A stretch of 64,000 nt of DNA, taken from positions 160,001 to 224,000 of IMG/VR virus record IMGVR_UViG_3300037780_000034. One strand, given 5' to 3'. Numbering within the stretch: position 1 is the stretch's first letter; each line of letters opens with the position of its first letter. The stretch comes from a virus (Duplodnaviria > Caudoviricetes). The translations under genes were made by a program, and so were the position numbers. The notes beneath the pieces are model-generated. The model did no database searches. It saw only the letters and a program-made list of their open reading frames with translations, and was not told where the DNA came from. Of this stretch, positions 16,483-36,194 are shown in pieces.

Positions 16483-16494
16483 GATAAAAATAAA

Positions 16495-16920: not shown

Positions 16921-16945
16921 CAATCATAGGAAAATATGGTAGTAT
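16917..16945 (+). promoter_or_regulatory. Sigma70-like promoter
   Basis: TTGACA-N17-TAGTAT with extended -10 TG; the -35 overlaps the upstream TGA stop. Confidence 0.8.
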
Positions 16946-16970
16946 TAAATCTTAACAAAAGGACAAGATT

Positions 16971-17189
16971 ATGAAACTAAACATTGAAATTGACTGCACA
17001 CCAGAAGAACTTCAAGAACTATTTATTCCAGGTGAAAAACAAACTGAATTCTTGACAAAATTTGTAAATTCACTAAGTGAACAAATGCAGGAAAATGTAT
17101 ACAAAAATTATCCAGATTTTATGAATGATATGTTATCTACTATTCAAAAAAATCAAGAACAATTTTTCAAAAATTTTAATAAAAACTAA
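16971..17189 (+). CDS. Small protein resembling the DUF6489 family
   Basis: MKLNIEIDCTPEE N-terminus recalled from alphaproteobacterial DUF6489 proteins (not searched). Confidence 0.5.
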   Translation: MKLNIEIDCTPEELQELFIPGEKQTEFLTKFVNSLSEQMQENVYKNYPDFMNDMLSTIQKNQEQFFKNFNKN

Positions 17190-17206
17190 AATATAGGAGC
17201 AAGCCG

Positions 17207-17806: not shown

Positions 17807-17807
17807 A

Positions 17808-18089
17808 ATGTATAAAATTTTAATTTTTTCATTTTTGGTTGACGAACATGAAGTATACCATGCACGGGACACCGGAATGTATGATTTAATTGCAAAATCA
17901 ATAAAAGATTGGTATACAAACACAGAAATAGGTCAATGGTGTTATGAAAATAAAATTAATCCATATTATGATTTGCCACACAGACGCATAGAAACTATGC
18001 AACTAAAAATTAATTTTTATGTAGATATTCCGCATGAATTAAAAGCAGAATATGATAAGATTAATTTTTTTGATAAATTGATAAACTAA
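17808..18089 (+). CDS. Hypothetical protein
   Basis: ORF immediately after the previous stop. Confidence 0.55.
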   Translation: MYKILIFSFLVDEHEVYHARDTGMYDLIAKSIKDWYTNTEIGQWCYENKINPYYDLPHRRIETMQLKINFYVDIPHELKAEYDKINFFDKLIN

Positions 18090-18102
18090 GATTGGAGACA
18101 TT

Positions 18103-18402
18103 ATGTTTGAAACTGAAATACAAAAAACCGAACTATTGAATTACTTAAAAGAAGGCAATGTGAAAATTCAATTTAAGAAAGTTAATGGAGAAATTCGTGA
18201 AATGAATTGCACATTAAATGAAAATGTTGTTAATGGAGGAAATTTGATAGAATCTTCAAAGACATCTAAAAAGAAAAACCCAGATGTCATTGCAGTATGG
18301 GATATTGAAATGAACGGCTGGCGCAGTATGCGTTGGGAAAACATTATAAAGGTAGATATATATGAACAATTTGAAACAACTAACTTGGGAAGCACATCAT
18401 AA
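18103..18402 (+). CDS. SH3/WYL_2-like (DUF2693-like) phage protein
   Basis: FKKVNGEIREMNCTL...VWDIEMNGWRSMRWENI; GGAG SD. Confidence 0.65.
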   Translation: MFETEIQKTELLNYLKEGNVKIQFKKVNGEIREMNCTLNENVVNGGNLIESSKTSKKKNPDVIAVWDIEMNGWRSMRWENIIKVDIYEQFETTNLGSTS

Positions 18403-18889
18403 TGCCGAAAGACAGCAATTTGCAAAAACATTACTAAGTGGAAAAATTACTCCACAACTGTATTACAAATATCTTTATAATCAATATCATATTTATATGG
18501 CCCTTGAAGAAAAACTGGATATACCAGAAATAGAAGATGTAAAAAGACTTACAAAAATAAAAGAAGATATTAAAGAATTAGAAGAATTGTATGATTTAAA
18601 AAATACAGATCAATTGTGTAGTTCAACCATTGAATATATGAAATATGTATCAGTATTAGATAAATCAAAAGTTATTTCGCATATATATGTTAGACATTTT
18701 GGAGATATGTATGGTGGTCAAATTATAAAAAAACGTATTCCAGGAAGTGGAAAAATGTATGATTTTGATAATGTTGAAAATTTAAAAACAATAATTAGAA
18801 ATATGTTAGATGATACTATGGCAGACGAAGCTAAGGTTTGTTTTGATTTTGCAACAAAATTATTTCAGGAATTATCAACAAATGAGTGA
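18362..18889 (+). CDS. hemO: Heme oxygenase (phage HemO/Ho1-like)
   Basis: LKQLTWEAHHNAE proximal His, HIYVRHFGDMYGGQII distal helix, EAKVCF. Confidence 0.92.
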   Translation: MNNLKQLTWEAHHNAERQQFAKTLLSGKITPQLYYKYLYNQYHIYMALEEKLDIPEIEDVKRLTKIKEDIKELEELYDLKNTDQLCSSTIEYMKYVSVLDKSKVISHIYVRHFGDMYGGQIIKKRIPGSGKMYDFDNVENLKTIIRNMLDDTMADEAKVCFDFATKLFQELSTNE

Positions 18890-19574
18890 AGTATGGAATA
18901 ACTTAATTAACATTCAAGATTTCTTAATAACTCAATTTGATAAATCTGGGACAGAAATACAAGAAGAAGGAATGGAAATATATAATAAAAACGGTTGGAT
19001 AAATCGTGTGTGGACAAGTAATAGTTATAGACGTGCACATATTGATGTAGTTGATGCTCGTAATTCTAAAGGACTATGGATGATGCACTGTTGTGTATTT
19101 CCTCATTTAGAAAATAATGGTCCAATATTTGGATTTGATGTAATTGCTGGAAAAAATAAAATGACAGGAGCATTTTTAGATTTTTCACCAACTGTTGAAA
19201 AAAATCACATAATGATTGAAGAACTTGGACATTATGTTTCTAACTTAAATTGGAAAAAAGAAAGAGAATTACCAGATTGGGCAAAAGCTATATTCAGTAA
19301 TCATATGGTTGCAGCAGGAAACATATCTAACATTGATGAAATAACACAAGTAACTATAATGGTAAATGATATGATAACCTTTTATCTTGATGATATAGAA
19401 AAATACAACAATCTATGTTCAGCAGAAGAATCAATATTAAGTCAGAATAATTATGCCTATTATCAAAAACAAAATCCACATACCCCAAAAACTATGACAG
19501 CTTTGGGCCTAGATGAAATTGAAGTAAAAAACTTTATAGAAAATTGTTTGTTTCCAAAAATAAAATCACAATAA
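18882..19574 (+). CDS. pcyX: Ferredoxin-dependent bilin reductase, PcyX/PcyA-like
   Basis: RRAHIDVVD, WMMHCCVFP, PIFGFDVIAG, QNPHT; D55/H69/D86 from the ATG at 18882; overlaps the hemO stop. Confidence 0.85.
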   Translation: MSEVWNNLINIQDFLITQFDKSGTEIQEEGMEIYNKNGWINRVWTSNSYRRAHIDVVDARNSKGLWMMHCCVFPHLENNGPIFGFDVIAGKNKMTGAFLDFSPTVEKNHIMIEELGHYVSNLNWKKERELPDWAKAIFSNHMVAAGNISNIDEITQVTIMVNDMITFYLDDIEKYNNLCSAEESILSQNNYAYYQKQNPHTPKTMTALGLDEIEVKNFIENCLFPKIKSQ

Positions 19575-19592
19575 TTAATCAGGAGAATAAAA

Positions 19593-19763
19593 ATGCCATA
19601 CAACTATACTAATATCAACCAAATAGATAAAGATACATTTGATTATTTAAAATTTGTATTACCAACTGACATATACGAAACTGATATTTCAGAAATAAAT
19701 TATTTTCTAACTAAGTTAGAAAGCTATTACATGGAACTTGACAACGATACCGAATCGGTATAA
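19593..19763 (+). CDS. Small acidic protein, 56 aa (not in the ORF track)
   Basis: AGGAG SD, ATG 19593, MPYNYTNINQ...ELDNDTESV, TAA 19761-63. Confidence 0.6.
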   Translation: MPYNYTNINQIDKDTFDYLKFVLPTDIYETDISEINYFLTKLESYYMELDNDTESV

Positions 19764-19766
19764 ATA
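19759..19766 (+). promoter_or_regulatory. T4-type late promoter TATAAATA
   Basis: Exact motif upstream of ORF 19792. Confidence 0.65.
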
Positions 19767-19791
19767 GATACTGAAATGAAAGGATACTCAT

Positions 19792-20259
19792 ATGTCTAAA
19801 TCTGCATATAACAAATATCTGAAAGTAAATGAAAAGTATTATGAAATGTCTGAAAATCTTGTCCTTAAAAATCTTAAGTTATCCATTATGGGCAAACTTA
19901 CAGAAAGCAAAAAAGACAAATATAATCAAAAAAATGTCGATATTGCATACAAGTGGAAAGATGCAGTTGACAACATCAACATAAAATATAACGAATATTT
20001 TGATTATCCTGAAGAACTTGTATCTATGTTAGAAGAAGCTGGATTTTATGCTGACGAAGACGAGTATGAAGATACGACACAAACGTATGTTCATGCACCT
20101 GTTGAACGTTATGATCCAACACCAGTTATCATTGAACGGTATACCGCACCAGAACCACAACGTAAAAAAAGTAGTGCCCTTGTGAATGCGGCTGGTCTTG
20201 CTGCAATAACAGTTGGTTCTTACTATGCTGGAAAAAGGCTTGCAAAGGCTCTGCTTTAA
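19792..20259 (+). CDS. Late protein with C-terminal hydrophobic/basic tail
   Basis: Late promoter, AAGGA SD; LTE/LEE motifs; tail ALVNAAGLAAITVGSYYAGKRLAKALL. Confidence 0.65.
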   Translation: MSKSAYNKYLKVNEKYYEMSENLVLKNLKLSIMGKLTESKKDKYNQKNVDIAYKWKDAVDNINIKYNEYFDYPEELVSMLEEAGFYADEDEYEDTTQTYVHAPVERYDPTPVIIERYTAPEPQRKKSSALVNAAGLAAITVGSYYAGKRLAKALL

Positions 20260-20831
20260 TGAATAAAGTAATATTAACAGATTGTGATGGTGTTCTTTTA
20301 AATTGGGAAAGTCAATTTCATAAATGGATGAATGATCGTGGTTATAACCAAACAAAAAGTGGATTTTATGAAATCCACGATGTTTATGATATGGCAGAAG
20401 ATCGTGCTATCCGGTATATTGAAGAATTTAACACAAGTTCTTATGTAATTGACTTACCACCATTAAAAAATTCAGTTGAAGGGTTAAAACGGTTAACTGA
20501 AAATGGGTATAAATTTGTTGTTATAACGAGTATAGGCGATAATCCATATACAAAAAAATTAAGAACAATAAATTTAGAAACTCTTTTTGGAAAAGATACA
20601 TTTATAGACATTATATGTCTTTCTGAAAAAATTAGTAAAAAATCAGAACTAGAAAAATATAAAGATAGTGGATTGTATTGGATTGAAGATTTACCTAAAA
20701 ATGCAAGTTTAGGTGCAGATTTAGGATTAAAACCAATATTACTAACTCATCATTATAATCAATATGATTGTAGTGACCATAGATTAATTAGAACAAATGA
20801 TTGGAATGAAATTTGTAATATTATAATATAA
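20259..20831 (+). CDS. HAD-family 5'(3')-nucleotidase-like protein (T4 30.2-like)
   Basis: ILTDCDGVLLNW, VITS, WIED motifs. Confidence 0.8.
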   Translation: MNKVILTDCDGVLLNWESQFHKWMNDRGYNQTKSGFYEIHDVYDMAEDRAIRYIEEFNTSSYVIDLPPLKNSVEGLKRLTENGYKFVVITSIGDNPYTKKLRTINLETLFGKDTFIDIICLSEKISKKSELEKYKDSGLYWIEDLPKNASLGADLGLKPILLTHHYNQYDCSDHRLIRTNDWNEICNIII

Positions 20832-20868
20832 GTGCAACTTGGAACCAGCAATTTATACTTATATTATG

Positions 20869-21615
20869 TTACTTTTCATCACCATAAATACGAAGAACGT
20901 CTCTTACTGTAGGATGACGTTCAACATCATTACGTGAAAATTCAACAACTCCCATTCTGGAACTATTATGATTTTGTAGTAAATCTAAAAAGTCTTTTAG
21001 TCCATTTTCATCAAATGTTCTATCGTGCTGTTTTAAGTCTCCAGTAACAATTATTCTACTGTTTTCACCTAACCTAGTTAAAATCATTTTCATTTGGTTA
21101 GGTGTGCAGTTTTGTGCTTCATCAAAAAGAATATATGCATTCTTGAAAGTTCTTCCACGCATGTATGCAAGTGGTGCTACCTCTATTATATTTTCTTTTA
21201 TCATAGCTTCTATTTCTATAGGAGAATAATATTCTTCTATAACATCAAATATAGGACGTGTCCAAGGGGCCATTTTTTCTACCAGATTTCCTGGTAAAAA
21301 CCCGTGTTGTTCATCTACGCTAACTGCAGGACGAGTAACTACTATTTTTTCACATTCGCCATTTTTCAATGCACGAATAGCGGCCAATACGGCTATCATA
21401 GTTTTACCTGTTCCTGCTGGTCCTATTGCAAACACCAAATCTATTTTATTATTATCTAGTAATTCAATGTAATCTTCTTGTTTAATGTTTTTTGGAAGAA
21501 TAACTACATTTTTTTTACGATTTTTATAGTTTTGGAAGTCTACAACTTGATGTGATATTGTTCCAACATTTTGCGGAACTGTATTTTTTGTTTTTCTAGC
21601 TCTATGCTTTGTCAC
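20869..21615 (-). CDS. phoH: PhoH-like ATPase
   Basis: GPAGTGKT, VVTRPAV, GFLPG, YMRGRTF, DEAQN, GDLKQHD; GTG start 21615 follows an AAGGAG SD. Confidence 0.93.
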   Translation of the reverse strand: MTKHRARKTKNTVPQNVGTISHQVVDFQNYKNRKKNVVILPKNIKQEDYIELLDNNKIDLVFAIGPAGTGKTMIAVLAAIRALKNGECEKIVVTRPAVSVDEQHGFLPGNLVEKMAPWTRPIFDVIEEYYSPIEIEAMIKENIIEVAPLAYMRGRTFKNAYILFDEAQNCTPNQMKMILTRLGENSRIIVTGDLKQHDRTFDENGLKDFLDLLQNHNSSRMGVVEFSRNDVERHPTVRDVLRIYGDEK

Positions 21616-23841: not shown

Positions 23842-26067
23842 ATGACAACATCACATACACCAATAGAACGAATAATAGAAAATACATATGAATTAGCCGA
23901 AAGATTTAATCATTCATATATAACGGTTGAACACCTTGCATCTGTATTGTTTACAGATAAAAGTGTTAAGTTAATATGTGAAAATCTTAGTTGTGACTAT
24001 GACCTAATTAAAGAAGAAATTGACCATTATATCAGCGAAGAACTGATAGATTTTACCAATAACTCTGGTCACAAGCCTAAAAAAACATTATCTATAGAAC
24101 GTGTGTTCAATAGAGCATTAGCACAAGCATTATTTTCTGGTAAAAAATCTATAAACACTATTGATTTATTACTATCAGTATTATATGAAACAGAATCACC
24201 AACTGTTTACATATGTAATAAATTTGGCCTTGAACGTGATAATCTGATACATACTGCCTCACTTCAATCCTTAGTAGAAGAACATACTTCAAGTAATTCT
24301 ACAAATAAAAATACAAATAAAAAACAAAGTTCATTAGATTCTTTTTGCATAAATCTAAATGAACTTGCTTTTAGCAATAAGATAGATGCGTTGATAGGTC
24401 GTGAAATTCAGGTAGAACAAGTAATACAGACACTTTCAAGAAAAAAGAAAAACAATGCTATATTAGTTGGAGAAAGCGGAGTAGGAAAAACTGCAATTGT
24501 TGAAGGTCTTGCTCATAAAATTGTAAACCGTGAAGTTCCACAAAGTATGAGTGATTATGTTATCTATAGTCTTGATATAGGCATTCTTATGGCAGGAACA
24601 AAATATAGAGGCGATATTGAAGAAAGAGTTAAAAACATCATAGAAGAAATAGAAAAGCAAAAAAATATAATTCTGTTTATTGATGAAATTCATACCATAT
24701 TAGGGTCAGGTTCTGGAAATTCTGGTGGACTTGATATTGCCAACCTTTTAAAGCCAGCTTTACAAACAGGAAAGCTTAGATGTATCGGTTCTACTACATA
24801 TGATGAATATAGAGAAAAATTTGAAAAAGATTCTGCATTGGTTCGTAGGTTCAACAAAATAGATGTTGAGGAACCTACATCAGATCAAACTAAAAAAATA
24901 TTACATCAAAGTATAAAATCATATGAAAGTTTTCATTCTGTAAAGTTTGACAAAAATGCAATTGATATGGCAGTAGATTTAAGCGTAAAGTATATGCTTA
25001 ATAAAAAGCTACCAGATAAAGCATTTGAAATTATTGATAGTGCTGCTTCAAGAAAAAAACTGTTTGCAAAAACTAAAAAGATTTCAGAAAATGATATCAA
25101 ACTGGAAGTATCTAAACTATGTAGAATTCCGATTGAAACTATAACTTCAAAAACAGAAAAATCAAAAAAGGTAGTAAACATAGAAAACACACTTAAACAC
25201 AAAATATTTGGACAAGATGAAGCCATATCTTGGTTGTCGGATTCTTTGTATATTAGTCAAGCTGGTTTAAAATCGCAAAATAAACCATTAGGAAGTTATT
25301 TGTTTACTGGTCCAACAGGTGTGGGGAAAACAGAAGTATGTAAAGTTCTTGCAAGTTCTTTAAATATTGAATTAGTAAGATTTGATATGAGTGAATATCA
25401 AGAAAAGCATTCAATTTCAAAATTGGTAGGATCGCCTCCCGGATATGTTGGATACAATGATGGAAAACAAGGAAGTGGATTATTGATTAATAAGTTGGAA
25501 CAATATCCAAATTGTATTATACTATTAGATGAAGTTGAAAAAGCGCATCCAGATGTTCTTAACATCTTACTCCAAATAATGGACGATGGGATAGTTACTG
25601 GAAGTAATGGAAAAACTGCAAGTGCAAGAAATGCTATTATAATAATGACAAGTAATCTTGGCGCAGCAGATAGTGAAAAAAATGTAATTGGATTTGGTTC
25701 AACAACAAATGATTACGCACAAGATGAAGCCATTAAAAACTTCTTTAAACCAGAATTTAGAAATCGTCTTGATGCAATTGTTAAATTTAATAAATTAGAT
25801 AAAGATAATGTAAATTCAATTGCACAAAAGTTTTTAAATGAACTTAATGATCTTCTTGTAGAACAGAACATAAAGTTATCTTGGAATGAAGATGTGGTAA
25901 GTTGGGTTGCTAAAAATGGATTTGATCCATTGATGGGTGCAAGACCAATGAACCGTGTGATTACAGAAAACATCAAAAAACCACTTTCAAGAAAAATATT
26001 ATTTTCAGATAGTAAAAATAAAGAGTTTACAATAAAAATAGAAGATAATAAGATAAATATAGAGTAA
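23842..26067 (+). CDS. clpA: ATP-dependent Clp protease ATP-binding subunit ClpA-like
   Basis: Clp N-domain, two AAA modules (GESGVGKT/LFIDEIH; GPTGVGKT/LLDEVEK), VIGF ClpP-docking loop, GARP. Confidence 0.93.
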   Translation: MTTSHTPIERIIENTYELAERFNHSYITVEHLASVLFTDKSVKLICENLSCDYDLIKEEIDHYISEELIDFTNNSGHKPKKTLSIERVFNRALAQALFSGKKSINTIDLLLSVLYETESPTVYICNKFGLERDNLIHTASLQSLVEEHTSSNSTNKNTNKKQSSLDSFCINLNELAFSNKIDALIGREIQVEQVIQTLSRKKKNNAILVGESGVGKTAIVEGLAHKIVNREVPQSMSDYVIYSLDIGILMAGTKYRGDIEERVKNIIEEIEKQKNIILFIDEIHTILGSGSGNSGGLDIANLLKPALQTGKLRCIGSTTYDEYREKFEKDSALVRRFNKIDVEEPTSDQTKKILHQSIKSYESFHSVKFDKNAIDMAVDLSVKYMLNKKLPDKAFEIIDSAASRKKLFAKTKKISENDIKLEVSKLCRIPIETITSKTEKSKKVVNIENTLKHKIFGQDEAISWLSDSLYISQAGLKSQNKPLGSYLFTGPTGVGKTEVCKVLASSLNIELVRFDMSEYQEKHSISKLVGSPPGYVGYNDGKQGSGLLINKLEQYPNCIILLDEVEKAHPDVLNILLQIMDDGIVTGSNGKTASARNAIIIMTSNLGAADSEKNVIGFGSTTNDYAQDEAIKNFFKPEFRNRLDAIVKFNKLDKDNVNSIAQKFLNELNDLLVEQNIKLSWNEDVVSWVAKNGFDPLMGARPMNRVITENIKKPLSRKILFSDSKNKEFTIKIEDNKINIE

Positions 26068-26071
26068 GAAG

Positions 26072-26097
26072 TAATAATGCCCGCAAGGGCATTATTA
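26072..26097 (+). terminator. Hairpin terminator after clpA
   Basis: TAATAATGCCC-GCAA-GGGCATTATTA, 11-bp stem with a GNRA loop. Confidence 0.7.
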
Positions 26098-26116
26098 ACT
26101 ATAAAGGGTTTGCACA

Positions 26117-26524
26117 ATGAATAAAATTAGCTATACTATACTTACAAATAAATCAGAAATGTCATATACTGGCGATAAGATAAGAACTGATATATTTTCT
26201 GGTATGACACAAAATTTATATACAGCTAGTATCTCAGTTAGTAATTTTATAGGAAGATTTTTTATTGAAGGAAGTATAGCACTTGATCCACAAGAAGGAG
26301 ACTGGTTTCCAATATATCTTACAAGCGGAACCCCATATAGACAATATCCTATAAACTCATTGAGTCCATCTGGTATTAATGATGGTGACACTATTACAGA
26401 AGGTTTCACTTTCCGTGCAAATCTTTTGTATATACGTGCAAGAATAGATCGCTCCTATTTGTCAGAAACTATATATGATCCTATAACACATGGAACAATT
26501 GATAAAGTTATAATAAATATATAA
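26117..26524 (+). CDS. Putative virion structural protein
   Basis: 135-aa beta-rich ORF in the late cluster. Confidence 0.55.
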   Translation: MNKISYTILTNKSEMSYTGDKIRTDIFSGMTQNLYTASISVSNFIGRFFIEGSIALDPQEGDWFPIYLTSGTPYRQYPINSLSPSGINDGDTITEGFTFRANLLYIRARIDRSYLSETIYDPITHGTIDKVIINI

Positions 26525-26536
26525 AAAGGAGTTTCT

Positions 26537-27199
26537 ATGGCAATATATGCAAGCACATCTACAATTACGACACAAACAGTTCCTCTTATAATTGTTGATC
26601 CTGCAACAGTTCAAGATAAGTATTGGCTTAGATGGGATGCTTCTATAGGTGCATTTATTCCAGAAATAATGAGACTCACCGATATCGAAGTTGTTGATTT
26701 AGAATCTTCAAATATAGAGGGAATATTGCCAGTAGATAAGGGAGGAACCGGACTAGATTCTTATAATTCTGGTGATATATTATATGCAAATTCAGAAGGT
26801 CTTTTGGAAACCTTGCAAATAGGAACAGGTGATAATTCCCAAGTTCTTACAATATCTAATGGATTTCCAATATGGGAAGATACTACTAATTTAAAAAATA
26901 TTGTCATATCTCAGCTTAATTCATTTACAGTAAGCAGCGATGACATAACAACATTACCAGAAAATAGTCAATTAAAATCTATAATAATACATATAGATCA
27001 AGCATACGACACAGATGATATAATTGTTTCTGATGAATCAGAAACACTCATTAGTTCAAATGAAATATTAACTTCACAAGTTGGAACGTATATATATTCA
27101 TTAGATAAATTTTATACTTTATCAGAAACTTTATCTGTTGTAATAACTGACGCTACCACAGGAAGTATGAGAATTTTTGTAGAATATACCCGATTATAG
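26537..27199 (+). CDS. Putative virion/tail-associated protein
   Basis: AGGAG SD; GILPVDKGGTG and GDILYA fibre-like motifs; acidic and beta-rich. Confidence 0.6.
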   Translation: MAIYASTSTITTQTVPLIIVDPATVQDKYWLRWDASIGAFIPEIMRLTDIEVVDLESSNIEGILPVDKGGTGLDSYNSGDILYANSEGLLETLQIGTGDNSQVLTISNGFPIWEDTTNLKNIVISQLNSFTVSSDDITTLPENSQLKSIIIHIDQAYDTDDIIVSDESETLISSNEILTSQVGTYIYSLDKFYTLSETLSVVITDATTGSMRIFVEYTRL

Positions 27200-27218
27200 A
27201 TATATTTTGATTAAATTT

Positions 27219-27226
27219 TATAAATA
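27219..27226 (+). promoter_or_regulatory. T4-type late promoter TATAAATA
   Basis: Exact motif upstream of ORF 27272. Confidence 0.7.
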
Positions 27227-27271
27227 CTATTAAGCATCAAGACGATGCAAAAAACATTAAGGAGAAAGTAA

Positions 27272-27736
27272 ATGGCTTTAATTAAAGTTAATCCTACCAT
27301 AGCCAACGTTGGTAGAAGTTTCAATGGAAAAACTGTTCAGGCATATACCGTTGACCTAGCAGTAAACGCAACTGATTTCGGAACAACTGAAATGGGTCCA
27401 AATGGCGCAGTTCAAGAAGTTCTACGTGTTCTTGGCAAAAATGTAACTATCATTATGCACAGTGCACTTCGTTCAGATGGCGCAAACGATGGTCAAGTTT
27501 TTGATATTTATGTAGAAGGCGAATTCCCAACTGATACATATGATGGCACAAACTCAGAAACTTTTGCTGCATTCTTGCAGACAGAAATTCGCACTCTAAC
27601 TGCTGCTGGTGCACGTAGTGCTGCAACCATTGCAGTATCAGGTGAAAGCGCAAATGCTGCTGGTGTTGATCTTTCAAGCGCAACTGTAGTTGCTTTGACT
27701 GGTAGCCCATTCTATGCAGACCAAATTCCTGTATAA
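27272..27736 (+). CDS. Highly expressed late structural protein (putative)
   Basis: Own late promoter, AAGGAG SD and terminator; Ala/Thr/Gly-rich. Confidence 0.65.
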   Translation: MALIKVNPTIANVGRSFNGKTVQAYTVDLAVNATDFGTTEMGPNGAVQEVLRVLGKNVTIIMHSALRSDGANDGQVFDIYVEGEFPTDTYDGTNSETFAAFLQTEIRTLTAAGARSAATIAVSGESANAAGVDLSSATVVALTGSPFYADQIPV

Positions 27737-27760
27737 TTAACTATAAAATAAACTTAAACT

Positions 27761-27787
27761 AAGGGGGCAATAAATGCCCCCTTTTTT
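27761..27787 (+). terminator. Intrinsic terminator
   Basis: AAGGGGGCA-ATAAA-TGCCCCCTT followed by a T tract. Confidence 0.85.
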
Positions 27788-27819
27788 AATAAATATACTA
27801 TAGATCGGAGTATAATCAA

Positions 27820-28149
27820 ATGAAGAATAAAACAAAAATATTCATTAAATCATTTTGGTGGAATGCTCCTGCTTATTTTGATCGGTGGAGAGTTTTTCCT
27901 AGAATTTTTATATCTGTATATCTATATTTGTTATACGAGGTTGTTCTTTGGTTTATGACCCTACCAGAGCCTAATTTTGAACAATCTACTCTTGTTAGCA
28001 CATTAATAGGAACAGGAGCAGCATGGTTTGGATTATATCTTCGTGAACCTCCAAAAAATATACAATCTATAGAACCTGAAAAAAATCCTGTGACAAATGA
28101 TGATATATCTGCTGATAATATACCAAGATTAAGAGAAGATGATGATTAA
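27820..28149 (+). CDS. Two-TM membrane protein (holin-like candidate)
   Basis: FDRWRVFPR followed by two hydrophobic helices and a charged C-tail; GGAG SD. Confidence 0.55.
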   Translation: MKNKTKIFIKSFWWNAPAYFDRWRVFPRIFISVYLYLLYEVVLWFMTLPEPNFEQSTLVSTLIGTGAAWFGLYLREPPKNIQSIEPEKNPVTNDDISADNIPRLREDDD

Positions 28150-28669
28150 TTTTATTTTATTAAAAACATATAAACCACTAAACGAAGAAGAAAAAGAAAA
28201 ATGGTTAAACATTGTTTTTAAGTTTTTAACCAATGGTTCTATTTTAAATCGTAAAGTTGTATGCCAAAAAACATCAAGCGAATTTAAATATAAAATATTT
28301 TTAAAACGTGAAATATCTATGTATGATGCTGAATTCATAGTTTCCGCTTGGGAAAACTATTATACAGATGACTTTTGTGTTGAAATTAATGTAAATGAAA
28401 ATGTTAATATAAACAATAACGAATACTTTATTGATAAAGAAACAAAAGAAAAATGTATTAAAATACTTTCTAAATTTTTACATAACAGGTGGGTAAACTC
28501 TAAAATTTCAGAAGGTTGGAGATATGGAATTTATTACAATAAAGAAGAAAAAGTTCATCCTTCATTAAGAGATTGGGATACTTTACCAAATAACTATAGA
28601 AATAATATAGATATTGATGACGAAAAACTAATAAAAATAATAGAATTACACCCTACACTATTTGGTTGA
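28139..28669 (+). CDS. Protein with C-terminal RyR-like domain
   Basis: LHNRWVNSKISEGWRYG...KVHPSLRDWDTLP resembles the bacterial/phage Ryr repeat. Confidence 0.65.
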   Translation: MMINFILLKTYKPLNEEEKEKWLNIVFKFLTNGSILNRKVVCQKTSSEFKYKIFLKREISMYDAEFIVSAWENYYTDDFCVEINVNENVNINNNEYFIDKETKEKCIKILSKFLHNRWVNSKISEGWRYGIYYNKEEKVHPSLRDWDTLPNNYRNNIDIDDEKLIKIIELHPTLFG

Positions 28670-28694
28670 CACCACAGATAATATCATATATCGT
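28666..28694 (+). promoter_or_regulatory. Sigma70-like promoter of uvsE
   Basis: TTGACA-N17-TATCGT. Confidence 0.65.
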
Positions 28695-28735
28695 GAGTAT
28701 GAAGAATCATATCATACTCACAGATAGGAAGTTAA

Positions 28736-29773
28736 ATGACTTTTACTAAAAAAATTGGATTTGCTTGCAAGTATGTTCATAATGATCTAACTATAGATGC
28801 AAAGAAAAAGAAAGAAATAGAAAGCAAATACAATACAAAAACAGTGACACGTGCTTGGTTGAACAGACAGGCAAAACACGTAGCAGAAAAAAAACTACAA
28901 GAAGTAGTGAAACACAATTTATATTCATTGAACAACTTAATTAAATATGTGGGAGAATTAGATGATGAATGCAAGTTATTACGTATTAGTTCAGATATCT
29001 TACCTCTTTATACTGAGCAGCATTGGTCTTACTATTATGATAACACAGATACAAAACAATGGCTTGAAAGATCATTCAATACAATTGGTAGTAATGCTAG
29101 GAAGCTTGGTATTCGCTTGTCTTTTCACCCTGGTCAGTTCTGTGTTTTGGCTTCCGATAATCCTGATGTGGTAGAAAATAGCATCCAAGAATTTGAATAT
29201 CATGCTGATATGATTCGTTGGATGGGTTACGGACAACAATTTCAGGATTTTAAATGTAATTTACATATTGGCGGAAGACTTGGACCAGATGGTATTCGTA
29301 AAGTATATCCACGTCTAAGCACAGAAGCACGAAATACCATCACAATTGAGAATGACGAATTTGGATGGGGGCTAGATTCATGTCTTGAACTAGCTGACAT
29401 TATTCCAATCGTGTTAGATATTCATCATCATTATATTCGCACAGACGGCGAATATATTCAACCAACTGATTCACGAATTTCAAAAATATTAGATAGCTGG
29501 AAAGGTGTTCGTCCAGTTATGCATTATAGTATAAGTCGTGAAGAATATACAAAGAATGTTAATGAATTTCCAGATATGAAACAACTTTTGTTAGAAGGTC
29601 ATAAAAAGACAAAACTACGTGCACACAGTGATATGCTATATAACAACAGATGCAATGATTGGGCATTGTCATTTTGGGATAAGTTTGATATAATGGTAGA
29701 AGCTAAAAACAAAAACTTAGCTAGTTTGCAATTGTATAATTATAGTAAAAAGATAAATACTAGTGTCAATTGA
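28736..29773 (+). CDS. uvsE: UV-damage endonuclease (UvsE/UVDE family)
   Basis: IGFAC, LRISSDILP, RLSFHPGQF, TIENDE, LDIHHH, HYS, HSD, MVEAKNK. Confidence 0.93.
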   Translation: MTFTKKIGFACKYVHNDLTIDAKKKKEIESKYNTKTVTRAWLNRQAKHVAEKKLQEVVKHNLYSLNNLIKYVGELDDECKLLRISSDILPLYTEQHWSYYYDNTDTKQWLERSFNTIGSNARKLGIRLSFHPGQFCVLASDNPDVVENSIQEFEYHADMIRWMGYGQQFQDFKCNLHIGGRLGPDGIRKVYPRLSTEARNTITIENDEFGWGLDSCLELADIIPIVLDIHHHYIRTDGEYIQPTDSRISKILDSWKGVRPVMHYSISREEYTKNVNEFPDMKQLLLEGHKKTKLRAHSDMLYNNRCNDWALSFWDKFDIMVEAKNKNLASLQLYNYSKKINTSVN

Positions 29774-29850
29774 CTCATTCTGAGTTTTACGGGGTTTGAT
29801 ACAATCCTTCCTCGTAGCGGGTTAGAACCCGTAAATGACAATCAAAAAGG
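29771..29850 (+). promoter_or_regulatory. Structured 5' leader candidate
   Basis: Three adjacent hairpins plus a mutually exclusive TTTACGGG/CCCGTAAA pairing ahead of the AAGGAG SD; GATAAATA late-like element at ~29752. Confidence 0.4.
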
Positions 29851-29859
29851 AGAATTAAT

Positions 29860-30420
29860 ATGGGTAGACCATTAAATAAAAGACATTTCGGCCCACCAAC
29901 TGATGATGGTTTAGAAATAAAAGTTCAATTTAACAATGGAACTGCAAGTGTAAATGGTTGGATTGTAAGACAAACTGGAAGTAAACGTTTTATTTGCAGT
30001 GACGGTTCAACACAAGTAAAATGCTATCTTGTTCCAAAAAACAGTGGTGATTTGTTAGCTAATGAAATGAGCATAACAGTAAAAGATGATGCTGGAAATG
30101 TTTATCAAGTTTCTAAAATTGCAGCAAATCGCGTTACTCTAGAAACAGGCGCTACTATTGCTTGGAATTGGAGTGATTCAACTACTGATGGATATGCAGA
30201 AATGGAAGAAGCTGGTGGTGATGTAATCGCAGTTACCGCAGCAGTCAACGGAACCGAATATGTAATTGTAACACTAGGTAATACTGTGTGGGCAACATTT
30301 GATGCCGGTGGAGATAACTCACCATATGCAGTCGGAGACACATTTGTTATGGCAAATGCACCAGGAACTGGAACTGGAACAGTTCGTGTAGCAGGCGATG
30401 ACTTTGAAGGCGACGAATAA
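29860..30420 (+). CDS. Putative virion structural protein
   Basis: MGRPLNKRHFG N-terminus, Gly/Thr-rich, own terminator. Confidence 0.65.
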   Translation: MGRPLNKRHFGPPTDDGLEIKVQFNNGTASVNGWIVRQTGSKRFICSDGSTQVKCYLVPKNSGDLLANEMSITVKDDAGNVYQVSKIAANRVTLETGATIAWNWSDSTTDGYAEMEEAGGDVIAVTAAVNGTEYVIVTLGNTVWATFDAGGDNSPYAVGDTFVMANAPGTGTGTVRVAGDDFEGDE

Positions 30421-30448: not shown

Positions 30449-30483
30449 AAAACCCTGTCATAGAAATATGGCAGGGTTTTTTG
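30449..30483 (+). terminator. Intrinsic terminator
   Basis: AAAACCCTGTCATA-GAAA-TATGGCAGGGTTTT followed by a T tract. Confidence 0.8.
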
Positions 30484-30522
30484 ATAAATAATTATTATAC
30501 AAAATACACAAGGATAATAATA

Positions 30523-33500
30523 ATGGAACGTGAAATTAAAATGTTAATTGGGTTAATTTACATTGACAGATTACTTAAATCAGATAAAAATGCTAGTCTT
30601 CCAAATGTAGCATTCAATGTATCTAGATACATAGGATCAAATATAAGATCACGTGAGTTACTTAATAAGTATGAAGAATTATTGATAAATGGAAAATTAG
30701 AATTATTTAATTTAGTAAAGGTCAAAGATAATTGGGCATTAGTTAGTAAATTAAATCCAAATCACGTCCTAAAATTGTTTAAAGATAAACCAGATGACAA
30801 TGAATTATCAAAAACAATTAAAAGTATTATTAGACAATATGTTATAGAAAATATAGATATTATTAATAATATACTTGTTGAACACGAAAAAAGTGCAAAA
30901 TACAATTTTTTAAATACAGTTGTATTACCAAAAAATGTCAACTTGACAGAATCTTACGATAATCAATTCATAATTGAACAAATAGAATTATATGAGGGAT
31001 TTTTAGACAGTATAAAAACTTATCTACAGGCTAGATTTGATCAAACAATGGATAATGTTAGTTCAACGATTACAAACTTTAAAGAAGCGGGAATCGTTAT
31101 TAAAGACATTATATCAAATTCAGAATATTTAGAAAAGGTGTCAACCCAAATAGGAAAAAGATTATTAACATTAATTAAAACAATAAGAGCAATAATCGCA
31201 AAAGCTTCAAATTCAGTTAATAATTCTAATTTAAAACTTGCAATTAATAAACTTAATGATATAGTTGGCTTATTTACAAAAGGACAACAAAAAGCTGTTC
31301 AATTAGGAGGATGGCAAGGATTATTGTATAAACTAGGTATGTATGGATTTATTAAATTTATATATTCAAAAATTAGTAAATTTTTAAATTTGTCTGAATT
31401 AGTGAATTTTGTTTCAGATACAGTATTTTCTGAATTTCTTGACAAATTTGGTATATTTCAAAATATGATGAATTCTGTATCTGCTCTTACAATGCAAAAA
31501 TTTATGGGATTTTTTGAAACATTAAATGAAGTAAAAGAAATATTCATAGATACCTTATCGGATATAAGAAGAAAACTTATGACCGGATCAAATATAAGTA
31601 GTAATTTGCCTTCTGTTAATGAAAATACTGGAAGAATTGTAAAAGGTGTGAATACAACGGTTGATGTTGGTCCTAACGAAATATCCAAACAAGCTGCTAA
31701 ATTTGGAAATAAAGTAAACAAAGATGGTTATCCTCCTATCTTACATAAAAAAGCAAGAAAAAATACAACACCAAATACTCTTTTTAATTTAGGATTAACA
31801 GAAACTATTAAAAAAGTAGGAAGCAAATATGTTATATATTCTAAAGATGGAAAAAAGAAATTAGGTTCTTATACAACAAAAACCGATGCTGAAAAGCGTT
31901 TAAAACAGATAGAATACTTTAAACATAAAAACGAGAGATATAGCAATCTTGAGCGTGCTATAATGGAAGGTGGTCATACACTGGAAGAAGGACCATTAGA
32001 TAAATTAAAAAAACTAGGAAAAGCAGCAGCAGTGGCAACGTCTCTTGGAACAACTGGGTTTTTAGGGGCTATTGGATATGACGGTATGACACAGGCACAG
32101 GCGGCTGATGCACAACGAGGGCAATCCAGTCAGTCAAGTGCAAGATCGGCTACACAGCGCGCGCAGGATGCTTCTACAAGCACATCTAATTCTGAGTTGG
32201 CACCTAAGAAAAGTCCAATACCAAAAGCAAATCCAAGAAATAATGACAAAGAAGATTTGTCTTCTGTAAAGCCAAAACCAAGACCAGATGTTCTTCTTTT
32301 AACACAAAGTCCATATGAAAAGCTATTATTAAACTATGCAAAACAATCAGGTATGCAAGGAATAGAATTGGTTTCTTTTATGTCGCAAATGGCAGTAGAA
32401 TCACAGCATTTTCAAAAAATGATAGAACGTGGAACAAAAGAGTATTTTGATCGTTATGAACCAGATACTTCTCCAGAAAGAGCAAACACTTTAGGAAACA
32501 CTGTAGTTGGTGATGGATTTAGATATAGAGGTAGAGGTTATGTTCAATTAACTGGAAAATACAATTATAATCTTGCAAGCGAAGCATTGAACATTGATTT
32601 GATTAATAATCCAGAACTTGCAGCTAATCCACATAATGCAGCAAAAATAGCATTATGGTATTGGAATTCAAAAGTAAAAAGATTAACAGACGATTTTGAT
32701 GATGTTAAAAAAGTAACATACCTTATAAATGGTGGTTATCACGCATTAAAAGATAGACGTGAATATTTCAATAGATATAAAAATAGATTAGCAATGACTG
32801 AGGCTGAAATAGTAGATTTAGATACACAAAGAAAAGAAAAAGAACTAAAAGATTTTCATAAAAAAATAAGGTCAGATATTTCTTCAAGAATGGAAGAAAA
32901 AACAGAAGCATATCGTATTGCTAAAGATCAAGGTATATTTGATGATTTGCCAGTAGGAAGCAGATTTACTTTAGAAAAAGGAGCATCATATAAAGTAATA
33001 TCACACAGTATGAATATGAAAAAAACCGATCAATTGCCAAGATATCAACTAGAGTTTAGAAACAAATTTAAATTCGGTCCTCCTAAATTTATTGAATATA
33101 ATGGAAAATATTATCAACCTATAGTATACGCAACTGAGGTTGCTGGTGAAAACGAAGGATCAAAAAGTGGTTTTGAATTAGATAAACTTATAAATTTTGA
33201 AACAGGTGAAAAACGTTATAAAAAATTTACTGGACCAAAACGAGTAACAGAAAAAAGAAAACAAAATCAGGTAAAAGGAAAAGAGAAACTTCCAAAAATG
33301 AGCAAACCATCAACAAGTGGAGAACAACCTCATCCTTATCGCGGCAGACTTGTTGGAGAAACTATTATTGATTTAACACCTTTTTTAATTTCAGAGTATG
33401 AAAAGTCTATAAAAAATAAAGTATTATCTGAAAATAAAATAGACAATGAACGAGTTTTTAAGTTTTTAAAAGAATACACGGATAACTCTCCAAGTATAAA

Positions 33501-34917
33501 AAAAGAATATATATATTGTAATGTAGTAATTCATAATTTTATAAAAATGTTGAATTTCGGTTATACTAAAAATCTATATAACTTAGTTGATTATTATGAT
33601 AACTATTATATATTTGATATGAATAAAAATTTTGTAAGATTGCCACATTATAAAGATATGGGCGATTCTAAATTGTTTTCTTTTGTATTTTCAAAAGAAA
33701 AAGATTTTAAAGATTTTTTTGCTGATTTAATGTTACAATTTAGTGATGAATACAAAATTGAAAAAAATGTTATAGACAAGAATGTCATCAAAGAAGAATG
33801 GTATCACGGAACCCCAGATGTTCGTGATTTGCAAAAAATTGGCGGATTTGAAAATAGAACTATGAACGTTTCTTATATTTCAAATCCATCATTATGGCGT
33901 GAATTACAAACTAAAGCAAATGAACTTCGTGATACTGACAACACCGAATACTTTAAGGTATTAGACGAAATTACAAAATTAAGAAAATATATGACTGTAA
34001 AAAGTCCTGTATTTTTAACAAATGTTTATAATGTAGCAAAAACTTATGCAGATGATACCCGTGCATTTGACTATCAAGGTGCAAATCCAAGAATTTTAAA
34101 AGTTGAAGTAGATGCTGGAAAAAATCTTAAAATAAATGCGGACGGAAAAGACTTTCGTGGAATAGATTTAGATGTTGTTATTAAATCTTTTATCAATGGT
34201 GGAGTTTCAATAGAAAAAATAAAAAATGTTATAGAAATGTTTTCACCAGAATTACGTAATAATAAATTGTCAACTGATGCAGTTTCAGTAATAGCACAGT
34301 TGTTTAATTTTGACACAGTTGATGTTACTGGTGTTTTAGATAGTTTTAATGTTGGAAAAATAAAGTCTACTGTTAGGATGGTATTTGATCCAAAACGTAT
34401 TAAAATTATAAGTAATTTAAAAGAATCTTTTGGATATAAAGTGATGGCTTATGATAGAAAAAACAAGATAGCATATTCATTGGCAGATAAAAATGTTAAA
34501 TTTCCAATAGACATAAACAAGAAAATAACAATTGGTAAAAATGGATTGTATTTGAGTAATAACAAAGACTTTGTGAAAAATTATTACAGTGGATTAACCG
34601 ATACTGATGAAATATTAGTAAAATTTGAATATGATCCTGTTGACATTATAAGTGGTAATGACAGTGATTCTGAATCTGAATTCACTGTGAAAACAGCAAA
34701 GATAGCAGACATAGAATTACTTTCTGAAACTATTTCAGTTGATTTGATTAATTTTTTAAAAGAAAATATGAGTGTAACAGGAACTGCAACTGCAGTCTCA
34801 GCGAGAAAAAAAGGATTAGAACCAGGAACTCCTGAATGGTTCGAACATTGGTTTAGTTTGCCTTATATGATAGACCAAAGAAAAAAGAATAAAGGTAGAA
34901 AAGGTAAACGAAAATGA
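30523..34917 (+). CDS. Large modular late protein with a GH19 lysozyme/chitinase-like domain and an ADP-ribosyltransferase-like (YHGT) module
   Basis: GH19: MSQMAVES...DGFRYRGRGYVQLTGKYNY...INGG (~32320-32790); WYHGTPD...VFLT..YNVAKTYA (~33800-34400); start 30523 chosen for the AGGA SD and the upstream terminator. Confidence 0.8.
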   Translation: MEREIKMLIGLIYIDRLLKSDKNASLPNVAFNVSRYIGSNIRSRELLNKYEELLINGKLELFNLVKVKDNWALVSKLNPNHVLKLFKDKPDDNELSKTIKSIIRQYVIENIDIINNILVEHEKSAKYNFLNTVVLPKNVNLTESYDNQFIIEQIELYEGFLDSIKTYLQARFDQTMDNVSSTITNFKEAGIVIKDIISNSEYLEKVSTQIGKRLLTLIKTIRAIIAKASNSVNNSNLKLAINKLNDIVGLFTKGQQKAVQLGGWQGLLYKLGMYGFIKFIYSKISKFLNLSELVNFVSDTVFSEFLDKFGIFQNMMNSVSALTMQKFMGFFETLNEVKEIFIDTLSDIRRKLMTGSNISSNLPSVNENTGRIVKGVNTTVDVGPNEISKQAAKFGNKVNKDGYPPILHKKARKNTTPNTLFNLGLTETIKKVGSKYVIYSKDGKKKLGSYTTKTDAEKRLKQIEYFKHKNERYSNLERAIMEGGHTLEEGPLDKLKKLGKAAAVATSLGTTGFLGAIGYDGMTQAQAADAQRGQSSQSSARSATQRAQDASTSTSNSELAPKKSPIPKANPRNNDKEDLSSVKPKPRPDVLLLTQSPYEKLLLNYAKQSGMQGIELVSFMSQMAVESQHFQKMIERGTKEYFDRYEPDTSPERANTLGNTVVGDGFRYRGRGYVQLTGKYNYNLASEALNIDLINNPELAANPHNAAKIALWYWNSKVKRLTDDFDDVKKVTYLINGGYHALKDRREYFNRYKNRLAMTEAEIVDLDTQRKEKELKDFHKKIRSDISSRMEEKTEAYRIAKDQGIFDDLPVGSRFTLEKGASYKVISHSMNMKKTDQLPRYQLEFRNKFKFGPPKFIEYNGKYYQPIVYATEVAGENEGSKSGFELDKLINFETGEKRYKKFTGPKRVTEKRKQNQVKGKEKLPKMSKPSTSGEQPHPYRGRLVGETIIDLTPFLISEYEKSIKNKVLSENKIDNERVFKFLKEYTDNSPSIKKEYIYCNVVIHNFIKMLNFGYTKNLYNLVDYYDNYYIFDMNKNFVRLPHYKDMGDSKLFSFVFSKEKDFKDFFADLMLQFSDEYKIEKNVIDKNVIKEEWYHGTPDVRDLQKIGGFENRTMNVSYISNPSLWRELQTKANELRDTDNTEYFKVLDEITKLRKYMTVKSPVFLTNVYNVAKTYADDTRAFDYQGANPRILKVEVDAGKNLKINADGKDFRGIDLDVVIKSFINGGVSIEKIKNVIEMFSPELRNNKLSTDAVSVIAQLFNFDTVDVTGVLDSFNVGKIKSTVRMVFDPKRIKIISNLKESFGYKVMAYDRKNKIAYSLADKNVKFPIDINKKITIGKNGLYLSNNKDFVKNYYSGLTDTDEILVKFEYDPVDIISGNDSDSESEFTVKTAKIADIELLSETISVDLINFLKENMSVTGTATAVSARKKGLEPGTPEWFEHWFSLPYMIDQRKKNKGRKGKRK

Positions 34918-35174
34918 TTTTGTTTATGGAGGGCATTGCTATGCACAAAAAATTAAAAAAAGTAGATTTTTACGATACTATAGGGTCAATGGAAAAAACA
35001 TCTATATTTGATGCTATAGTTTTTTCTGGTGTTGAAGGAAAAAATATCTTAACACAAGAAGAATATAGAACAGTAATATCTAAAAAAAGAAAATTAATAA
35101 GAAGCGATATAAAACAACAACGTGCAATGTCAAAAATGGCAAAAAAATTTGATTGGAAAAATAATGAAAATTAA
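34914..35174 (+). CDS. Hypothetical protein
   Basis: 86-aa basic ORF overlapping the upstream stop. Confidence 0.5.
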   Translation: MILFMEGIAMHKKLKKVDFYDTIGSMEKTSIFDAIVFSGVEGKNILTQEEYRTVISKKRKLIRSDIKQQRAMSKMAKKFDWKNNEN

Positions 35175-35355
35175 TGAAATAATAAATGAAATGTCATCAA
35201 GCGGTTCAACTAGTGCTGGAAGCATAGCAGGAGCAAATGGACAGATAGGTGTTATGCAACGTAGAAATAGTGACGGAACTGCTTTAAATGCGTTGGACCA
35301 ACCTGACAACATCTTTGGTGTCAAGAAAAAAACAAAAAATAAACGAAAAAAATGA
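35164..35355 (+). CDS. Small protein, possible head-internal protein
   Basis: MKINEIINE-MSSSGSTSAGSIAG; basic C-tail. Confidence 0.55.
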   Translation: MKINEIINEMSSSGSTSAGSIAGANGQIGVMQRRNSDGTALNALDQPDNIFGVKKKTKNKRKK

Positions 35356-35381: not shown

Positions 35382-36194
35382 ATGGTATCTAAAAGAATAC
35401 AAATGTTAGAAGAAAAAATGTCTGACGCACAAAAAAAGAAGCGTGAAGACATAGTTCAAGCTATGAAAAAAGATAAAAAAAGAATGCAAGATTCATATGG
35501 TGACAAATGGGAAGATGTGATGTATGCAACTGCAACAAAACAGGCTATGAGAGAAACCAAACTTGACCCAGTTGGCAAAGAAGATGATGACATTAACAAT
35601 GATGGAAAGGTTGATTCTACCGACGAATATCTTAAAAACAAACGTAAAGCTATTTCAAAAAATATTAAAGAATCACGAAAAATGACAAAAGCTGAAATTG
35701 AAAAAAAGATCAGCGATGGAGAATGGGAAACCGATTTCAAAATTGATGTAGGTAAACCTGCTGTTGTAAAAAACTCAAAAACTGGGAAAAAGATGCGTAT
35801 AATGGTAACAGAAGGTGTATTAGATTCTACAGATGATGATGGATGGATGGCAAAAAGTCAACTATACAAAACTGCAAAATATGCAATTGCATTGCATCAA
35901 ATGATTAATGATGCTGATGATTTAGAACCTTGGGTTCAAGCAAAAATTACAAGGGCAAGTGTTGATTTATCTGCAGTTAAACATTATATGGAATATCTTT
36001 TGAGTAGAAATGAACAAGAATATACCAATACAAATGTTCCTATGACATTAGAAACAGAAATCTTAGAAGCAAAAAAAAGAAAGAAAAGTTTGCGTAATCC
36101 TAAAGATAATCCTTGTTGGAAAGGATATGAACCAGTTGGAACAAAAATGAAAGACGGAAAAGAAGTTCCAAACTGTGTTCCAAAAAAGAAATAA
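35382..36194 (+). CDS. Modular late protein (prohead core/internal protein-like)
   Basis: Modules separated by LEE/MRE/IKE/VTE/ILE motifs; EF-hand-like DINNDGKVD; C-terminal CWKGY...VPNCVP module. Confidence 0.65.

Follow-up and report, generated by a model that had tools for sequence, protein, structure and literature searches.

The window analyzed here (64,000 nucleotides, bases 160001-224000 of the 317.7-kb IMG/VR virus contig IMGVR_UViG_3300037780_000034, estimated to be 85% complete) carries a single uninterrupted open reading frame (ORF) at 30523-34917 on the + strand, with its ATG at 30523 and its stop codon at 34915-34917. The ORF encodes a 1464-residue protein, P0002, which is a chain of unrelated modules joined at hydrophobic-x-Glu motifs. 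We consider, with a probability of roughly 0.7, that P0002 is a precursor cut in the prohead by the phage's own S77 protease at the joints between the modules, and that the products are ejected with the DNA. The modules are as follows (window coordinates, strand, residues; an arrow marks a putative cut; ART, ADP-ribosyltransferase).

30523-30951, + strand, aa 1-143: M0, an accessory module (1-120) and then an internalised leader, KYNFLNTVVLPKNVNLTE↓S
30952-31623, + strand, aa 144-367: M1, present in 24 homologues, ending in SVNE↓N
31624-31803, + strand, aa 368-427: M2, a highly conserved basic (+6) peptide of 60 aa, ending in GLTE↓T
31804-31989, + strand, aa 428-489: M3, an accessory basic module ending with the conserved double site AIME↓GGHTLEE↓G
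31990-32802, + strand, aa 490-760: M4, with a basic stretch, a weakly hydrophobic segment, an S/A/Q-rich linker and a GH19 domain (~600-757), ending in AMTE↓A
32803-33252, + strand, aa 761-910: M5a, universal and 66-70% conserved, ending in RVTE↓K
33253-33360, + strand, aa 911-946: M5b, a peptide that is basic (+7) and disordered, with GRLVGE↓T at its end
33361-33795, + strand, aa 947-1091: M6, an accessory module in only 4 homologues, ending in VIKE↓E
33796-34425, + strand, aa 1092-1301: a predicted ART module of the ART-PolyVal / Tox-ART-HYD2 type (H1095, Y1175, D1273), ending in NLKE↓S
34426-34764, + strand, aa 1302-1414: M8, a beta-rich domain (1302-1400) followed by the sites LLSE↓T and FLKE↓N
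34765-34914, + strand, aa 1415-1464: M9, a universal, basic (+8) C-terminal module of 50 aa containing ...EPGTxEWFEHWFSLPYMIDQRKK...

The placement of the motifs carries the argument. A preliminary description of this DNA had proposed that hydrophobic-x-Glu motifs mark the module boundaries, and all eleven sites quoted in it exist (residues 143, 367, 427, 489, 760, 910, 970, 1091, 1301, 1402, and 1414). VLSE↓N at residue 970, inside a poorly conserved module, is unsupported as a boundary, and the list overlooked AIME↓G (482) and the best joint of all, GRLVGE↓ (946). P0002 holds 26 [LIVM]xE motifs, and the expectation from composition is 22.6 ± 4.0; thus, the proposed relation holds for where the motifs lie, but not for their total number. 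Break points in the architecture, defined by BLAST against 27 homologues and independently of the motif, lie near residues 128, 365-370, 425-430, 752-760, 946-948, 1086-1091, 1301-1304, and 1404-1410, and 7/7 internal break intervals hold an [LIVM]xE motif (analytic p ~2.5e-6). The best chance result was 5/7 in 20,000 shuffles and 6/7 in 200,000 random placements, and none of these 220,000 trials reached 7/7. LVGE↓T at residue 946 is the most conserved joint, with GRLVGE present in 23/24 homologues; AIME↓G is present in 24/24 and TLEE in 19/24. Conservation of the motif as such separates joint sites from internal sites poorly (medians 0.88 and 0.80), and since it is a poor discriminator, the argument rests on motif position. 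In the AlphaFold2 (AF2) models, sites 1091 and 1301 are located in coil exactly at domain edges, and sites 910 and 946 lie in a disordered stretch (residues 904-946; M5b has a predicted local distance difference test score, pLDDT, below 50).

The relatives of P0002 show what happens at these joints. Among 5.8 billion proteins searched, 26 are clear homologues (816-1377 aa); every one of them is metagenomic, and their contigs measure up to 270 kb. BLAST comparison with them reveals blocks that are present, absent, duplicated or reordered, and module content thus differs among relatives, as the preliminary description predicted. Across the family, GRLVGE↓ precedes five different continuations. 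It is followed by TIIDL (M6) in P0002, by AIGYK (M8) in eleven relatives, by TIKE↓EWFHG or DLEKWYHG (ART) in four relatives, and by NTYFK...INYIKE↓NISIT (M9) in four relatives. Further joints seen in relatives are IAGLNE↓NMSVT between ART and M9, KNILKE↓NISIT between M6 and M9, and GDKITE↓HGGRV between a Cys-rich N-terminal module and M2. Unrelated modules thus have a hydrophobic-x-Glu at the C-terminal edge in common, and it is exactly at these edges that the relatives have recombined. The Cys-rich module (CINC..W..P..C....G.ISP.GWC.W) stands in place of M0/M1 in P0003, P0011-P0013, and P0198.

Among the individual blocks, M2 is 70-86% identical among relatives and occurs also in GNAT-bearing polyproteins. 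Full M3 is found in few relatives, and PHROG 3684 matches aa 424-476. M9 forms the C-terminus of P0003-P0026 and is 78-80% identical in the closest relatives. Four small basic modules, M2, M3, M5b, and M9 (+6 to +8), are like the internal proteins (IPs) of T4. Pfam searches with isolated modules returned sub-threshold noise only, and ESM Atlas feature searches with M5 and M1 gave no usable match. Against cultured phages, blastn with the gene found no match, tblastn matched the GH19 part only, and the part from ART to the C-terminus found no match.

The motif matches the specificity class of a protease that the phage itself encodes. The contig carries a T4-like head cluster composed of portal, acidic core protein, Peptidase_S77 protease, scaffold and gp23-type capsid protein. 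The prohead protease (211 aa, genome 258870-259505) belongs to Peptidase_S77, the gp21 family, at 73 bits, above the cut-off. The gp23-type capsid protein shares 65-71% identity with its counterparts in Sinorhizobium phage Phosso, Vibrio phage 2.275.O, Pseudomonas phage PA5oct, and Cronobacter phage GAP32, and judging from these genes, the virus is an uncultured T4-related jumbo phage. The preliminary description had presupposed a protease of the T4 gp21 type, and the S77 and gp23-type genes on the contig bear this out. Since the head genes are T4-related, the rule to apply here is that of T4, in which the cut follows the Glu of hydrophobic-x-Glu. The capsid protein has VME, VLE, and LME 9-22 residues N-terminal of its conserved core; in the T4 record, gp23 has FLTE↓AEI in the corresponding region, and IPII and IPIII start with MKTYQEFIAE↓A.

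Four of the modules (M1, M2, M5a, and ART) exist also as separate genes with leaders that resemble this T4 capsid targeting sequence (CTS). By exhaustive HMMER search, the WYHGT module has 179 homologues, many of which are ~215-230 aa long with the domain located after a short leader. Among short leaders of 8-30 aa, 38/44 have the motif 1-8 residues before the domain, compared with 6.4 ± 2.2 in control windows. Examples are MRLLEIFE.., MRFLQLVEA.., and MTKTLTQFIAEAT, the last of which appears nearly identical to the CTS of IPII and IPIII. Stand-alone M2 is encoded in phage Phosso (PV764938.1, locus L011, 1450-1644, - strand, 64 aa), where it starts with MRYAEILKLLE↓DGKVVKGVNTT..., and in P0194, which starts with MKISDLAE↓DGRIVKGVNTT.... 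Stand-alone M1 is found in Phosso (locus L012, 1222-1767, - strand, 181 aa; MRYHEI...QILTE↓D). Both Phosso genes are annotated 'hypothetical' and are located among tRNA genes. Stand-alone M5a occurs in P0193 (MRWSQIVSE↓SEIVD...) and at IMG/VR locus L016 (MNMRDLINIIE↓SNIVD...), where the protein ends at FTGPQR, the position at which P0002 has RVTE↓K.

The same type of leader is found within P0002 and across its genome. Most family members have an N-terminal 20-aa leader ending in L(I/L)xE↓S, and most relatives start ~20 aa before the NL(I/T)xE↓S site, e.g. MQYSKDILFTIINPNLIINE↓S. In P0002, the leader is internal and follows an extra module of 120 aa; M0 is found in only 4 homologues. In the genome, 16/388 ORFs of at least 100 aa start with M-[RK]-[LYFIV]-..-[EQ]-[ILVF], compared with 0.13% at internal Met positions, with MRYHEIINE, MRINQLLE, and MKITQITEA as examples. 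These leader-bearing ORFs may encode a large set of internal proteins packaged in the head; examples on G000:C1 are listed below.

177-1028, + strand: leader-bearing ORF
13611-15458, + strand: leader-bearing ORF
17593-19491, - strand: leader-bearing ORF
19568-20998, + strand: leader-bearing ORF
66107-66490, + strand: leader-bearing ORF
123070-124266, + strand: leader-bearing ORF
304530-305750, + strand: leader-bearing ORF
308026-309705, - strand: leader-bearing ORF

To judge from these leaders, the T4 type is evidently in wide use in this phage, and the polyprotein looks like a series of leader-type cassettes joined end to end. On the same contig, YYHGS, LYHG or MFHGTS follows soon after the leader in three of the leader-bearing ORFs, all on the - strand, about 10 residues past it in 1050-1523 and immediately past it in 16052-16621 and 16618-17586. 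These three may be further stand-alone internal proteins of the ART type.

Two of the modules resemble known enzymes. The GH19 domain named in the preliminary description matches Pfam PF00182 at 38.8 bits (cut-off 25.5), and all homologues match as well; it also matches a PHROG endolysin family (3.6e-37) and the PDB endolysins 7r6s, 9ms7, and 4ok7 (2e-24 to 1.6e-17). The reported replacement of HES by VES is seen in the alignment, in which AVES lies opposite AHES/GHES of 9ms7 and 7r6s, so that the first catalytic Glu is retained and His is replaced by Val. For the second catalytic Glu, Glu635 and Glu640 are in the right region, where the alignment is gapped. Upstream of the domain, KLKKLGK is followed by a G/A/S/T-rich stretch of ~18 aa (501-519) and then by the S/A/Q-rich linker. 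The basic stretch and hydrophobic segment previously called signal-anchor-like thus exist, but the segment is only weakly hydrophobic (Kyte-Doolittle 1.17) and looks closer to a signal-arrest-release (SAR) element than to a classical signal anchor.

The WYHGT module, which had been described as ART-like and of the polyvalent-protein type, is predicted to be an ART-PolyVal (H-Y-D) ADP-ribosyltransferase domain. In an alignment of 73 sequences, H, G, A, Y, F, and D are invariant, including H1095, Y1175, and D1273. The AF2 model (pLDDT 95) has an ART fold with the His in strand 1 and the Asp directly past the strand formed by aa 1265-1272 (domain positions 174-181). The H-Y-D configuration described for the ARTs of polyvalent proteins has its His in strand 1 and its Asp in strand 5, plus a Tyr (PMC5512222). 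In the VIA ranking, positions 1-30 are taken without exception by folds of the ART superfamily (Z 5.2-7.9), among them PARPs, diphtheria/exotoxin A-type toxins, AcrIF11, MbcT, ParT, and RES, and ART-PolyVal proteins in BFVD match the model with E down to 3.5e-8. PF18760 matches 13/73 of the aligned homologues (best 1.3e-7), and the P0002 module itself scores above E 1. Two Foldseek searches against the PDB, with either model, gave no match at E <= 0.001; the ART assignment rests on VIA, BFVD, and the Pfam matches of the homologues.

In the AF2 models of other modules, M5a (aa 761-903, pLDDT 74-90) consists of a long helix and an SH3/Tudor-like beta barrel, with VIA matches to small barrels at Z 5.5-6.6. 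M8 has a confident beta-rich fold (pLDDT ~82) with the conserved motifs GYK, YLSN, and ESEFTV, and its VIA matches are BC2332 (Z 7.0), the rifampin ADP-ribosyltransferase Arr (Z 6.5), and Tpt1 (Z 5.9). On this model, residues 1302-1400 may form a second, minimal ART-like domain beside the H-Y-D ART, which we regard as a lead only. Confidence is low for M6 and the C-terminal 60 aa.

A protein from a phage in which no S77 protease was found provides a comparison. Among cultured or deposited phages, M5 has a single match, a protein of 739 aa whose gene adjoins the portal gene in the complete 61-kb myovirus genome MW202675. With GNAT, Peptidase_M15, an M5-like segment and ART-PolyVal in one chain, it is a classical polyvalent protein. 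A search of this complete genome found no S77 protease, and the homologous joints ...YADGGEVADL... and ...GNPKDLWHGT... lack [LIVM]xE. This goes the right way for processing by an S77 protease, as a single case. The S77 search also covered three related IMG/VR fragments, which at 7-24% completeness are too fragmentary to be informative.

The main rival to such processing is that P0002 is an intact polyvalent protein, either packaged or attached to the virion and delivered as one polypeptide, perhaps minus a propeptide, and that the xxE motifs are a linker convention or recombination scars. The virion RNA polymerase (vRNAP) of N4 and some other polyvalent proteins are packaged unprocessed (PMC5512222), and the unenriched overall [LIVM]xE count agrees with this explanation. 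However, it does not account for unrelated modules that share an end motif matching the specificity class of the phage's own protease, for stand-alone versions with removable CTS-like leaders, or for the motif-free joints of MW202675, and we consider delivery of the intact protein unlikely.

Several observations weigh against the precursor reading. The total [LIVM]xE count is not above the composition expectation, and motifs within folded domains (152, 158, 336, and 635) are as conserved as those at joints. P0002 lacks an N-terminal CTS, its leader-like element being internal (aa 121-143), and, to our knowledge, CTS function in T4 has been demonstrated for the N-terminal position only. The polyprotein gene is located ~65 kb away from the head gene cluster. 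No homologue was found in the capsid relatives PA5oct, GAP32, and Vibrio phage 2.275.O, and Phosso has the stand-alone M1 and M2 only. The cleavage specificity of the protease in this clade is an assumption carried over from T4. Cleavage, packaging and injection, like the enzyme activities, are inferred.

The position of the gene outside the head cluster would also suit a protein that acts from the tail to breach the wall, be it a lysin associated with the tail or baseplate or a protein resembling a tape measure; many peptidoglycan hydrolases of virions belong to the tail. We regard this as improbable: only in a prohead-core protein would gp21-type sites and CTS-like leaders have a purpose, the ART and the basic peptides resemble T4 Alt and the IPs, and no tail-protein family was detected in Pfam or PHROGs. 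A still slimmer chance is given to the GH19 part being a SAR-type endolysin for lysis from within, as its best PHROG and PDB matches and the weakly hydrophobic G/A-rich segment before the domain might suggest. Sequence matches to endolysins indicate fold rather than role, GH19 lies between conserved non-lytic modules in all 27 relatives, and since the genome encodes a GH24 lysozyme elsewhere, in an ORF of its own, lysis need not depend on GH19. That ORF (T4-lysozyme family, PF00959; ~242 aa; genome 239681-239896, - strand) likely encodes an endolysin or a baseplate lysozyme. Processing by another protease (a host protease, phage ClpAP or an undetected embedded peptidase) is just as improbable: embedded zincin-like peptidases have been proposed for polyvalent proteins (PMC5512222) and the phage has ClpA- and ClpP-like genes, but Pfam and PHROGs detected no peptidase domain in P0002 or its modules, and a Glu cut with hydrophobic P3 is the T4 gp21 signature (gp23 FLTE↓A, IP CTS FIAE↓A).

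If P0002 is processed by the S77 protease, the following sequence of events can be proposed. A late-expressed precursor of ~165 kDa would be incorporated in the prohead core, and the gp21-type Peptidase_S77 would cut it after the Glu of (L/I/V/M)-x-E at residues 143, 367, 427, 482/489, 760, 910, 946, 1091, 1301, and 1402/1414. About 10-12 products of 4-30 kDa would result, comprising four small basic peptides (M2, M3, M5b, and M9), a GH19 hydrolase with a SAR-like N-terminus, an H-Y-D ART and several other domains. The products retained in the head would exit with the DNA, whereupon the wall would be the target of the hydrolase and host proteins that of the transferase, as with T4 Alt. In evolution, the gene would have arisen as a string of T4-IP-like cassettes, each keeping its protease site and exchanged among relatives at those sites.

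Elements surrounding the gene are as follows (window coordinates).

30449-30482, + strand: intrinsic terminator with a 14-bp hairpin (30449-30480) and a U run (RNA fold -19.9 kcal/mol, z -6.4)
30483-30490, + strand: T4-late-promoter-like box GATAAATA, 39 nt 5' of the ATG and directly 3' of the hairpin
35164-35355, + strand: 63-aa gene with the CTS-like leader MKINEIINE↓M, then an S/G/A-rich stretch and a basic tail
35382-36194, + strand: 270-aa gene, preceded by GATAAATA at -27; the Cys motif NPCWxGY...NCVP is C-terminal

None of 200 shuffles was as stable as the terminator hairpin, which was not reported by a consensus terminator scan. It closes the preceding genes, whose promoters are of the TTGACA/TATAAT (sigma70) type. 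A longer reading frame from 30436 was dismissed; since the hairpin lies inside this 5' extension, which would cross it, a start there is unlikely. TATAAATA or GATAAATA is also found at -36 to -61 of the portal gene and two adjoining head-cluster genes. The protease, scaffold and capsid genes have no such late box within 90 nt, and ATAAATA occurs 113 times on the same strand of the 318-kb contig. Since the terminator is followed by the GATAAATA box and like boxes precede head genes, the polyprotein gene looks like its own late transcription unit, and 30449-30490 appears to mark the early/late boundary between the sigma70-type neighbours and the polyprotein. The upstream neighbours (window 23842-30420) are a ClpA/B-like 741-aa ATPase, a 345-aa endonuclease and small ORFs, with sigma70-type promoters.

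The 63-aa downstream gene probably encodes another small internal protein. P0192 (487 aa), a homologue of the 270-aa gene product, has an inserted M5 module, with SITE↓E on one side and SVTE↓A on the other. Since this insertion is flanked by xxE sites, the 270-aa gene probably belongs to the cassette system of the polyprotein. Its C-terminal Cys motif (window 36100-36190) resembles the Cys-rich N-terminal module of the relatives, which may be a zinc-ribbon-like cassette.

Beyond this gene, we put about even odds on a wider proposal, in which injected-effector cassettes, each with a prohead-protease site at its boundary, circulate between CTS-led single genes and polyproteins in T4-related jumbo phages, recombination at protease sites makes new cocktails, and one targeting event loads a fixed-ratio set of at least 10 proteins per capsid. 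Such a system would be a double-stranded DNA phage counterpart of the polyproteins of RNA viruses. If P0002 is indeed a multi-effector precursor cut at its joints by the prohead protease, this would explain how many effectors are loaded at fixed stoichiometry through a single targeting signal. A sequence rule (a module, then hydrophobic-x-Glu) could then be applied to metagenomic T4-like phages to find injected effectors and where exactly their mature forms end. At least six conserved modules would become candidate early host-takeover or anti-defence proteins, and the precursor would offer a natural design for loading several foreign proteins in T4-type capsids.

P0002 can be compared with several known systems. 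Polyvalent proteins, for which packaging in the virion and injection are predicted (Iyer et al. 2017, PMC5512222), are defined by at least two disparate domains in one polypeptide, and P0002 contains GH19, ART and at least six further modules. Indirect signs of such delivery for P0002 are the late-type promoter box and the CTS-like leaders of the stand-alone homologues. In both, a peptidoglycan hydrolase and an H-Y-D ART are among the unrelated effector domains combined, and shuffling is extensive. Embedded zincin-like metallopeptidases have been proposed to process polyvalent proteins (PMC5512222), whereas no peptidase domain was detected in P0002 and every one of its joints has a site for a prohead protease acting in trans. 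P0002 has GH19 as its wall-cutting domain, and chitinase is unmentioned in the text of PMC5512222. The protease gp175 or gp245 of phiKZ, 201phi2-1, and SPN3US, which belong to a different lineage, also cuts head proteins (ejection and inner-body proteins) after Glu, often at multiple sites (PMC5694885, PMC10052503). There, however, the cuts fall at (S/A/G)-x-E and break down long propeptides at the N-terminus, so that a single mature product remains (PMC5694885, PMC10052503), whereas those in P0002 would free many folded products. A domain of the pre-ejectosome protein of cyanophage A4 (PDB 9k3a chain B) aligns with the ART module (VIA Z 6.6-6.8) and is the best Foldseek row; this likeness is weak and structural only, and the protein, a large podovirus ejection protein, belongs to another virion architecture and is not known to be processed as a polyprotein.

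The T4 proteins IPI-III and Alt are targeted by a CTS, processed by gp21 and injected. As in the system proposed here, the protease is of the S77 family and the cut falls after Glu with hydrophobic P3, and the 10-20-aa leaders of stand-alone homologues of P0002 modules resemble the T4 leader. The T4 head contains small basic proteins and an ADP-ribosyltransferase packaged for injection (PMC9026906). No sequence homology of P0002 to the T4 IPs or Alt was detected, and T4 Alt is an R-S-E ART, whereas that of P0002 is of the H-Y-D type. In T4, each internal protein has one gene and its own N-terminal CTS, and prohead processing yields a single mature protein from each gene, whereas here about ten would be joined in a single precursor. 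A search of the open-access literature found no description of a multi-effector precursor with a prohead-protease site at every joint. Polyvalent proteins and the T4 CTS/gp21 system are each known, and what we read as new in P0002 is their combination, with proposed processing in trans by the prohead protease.

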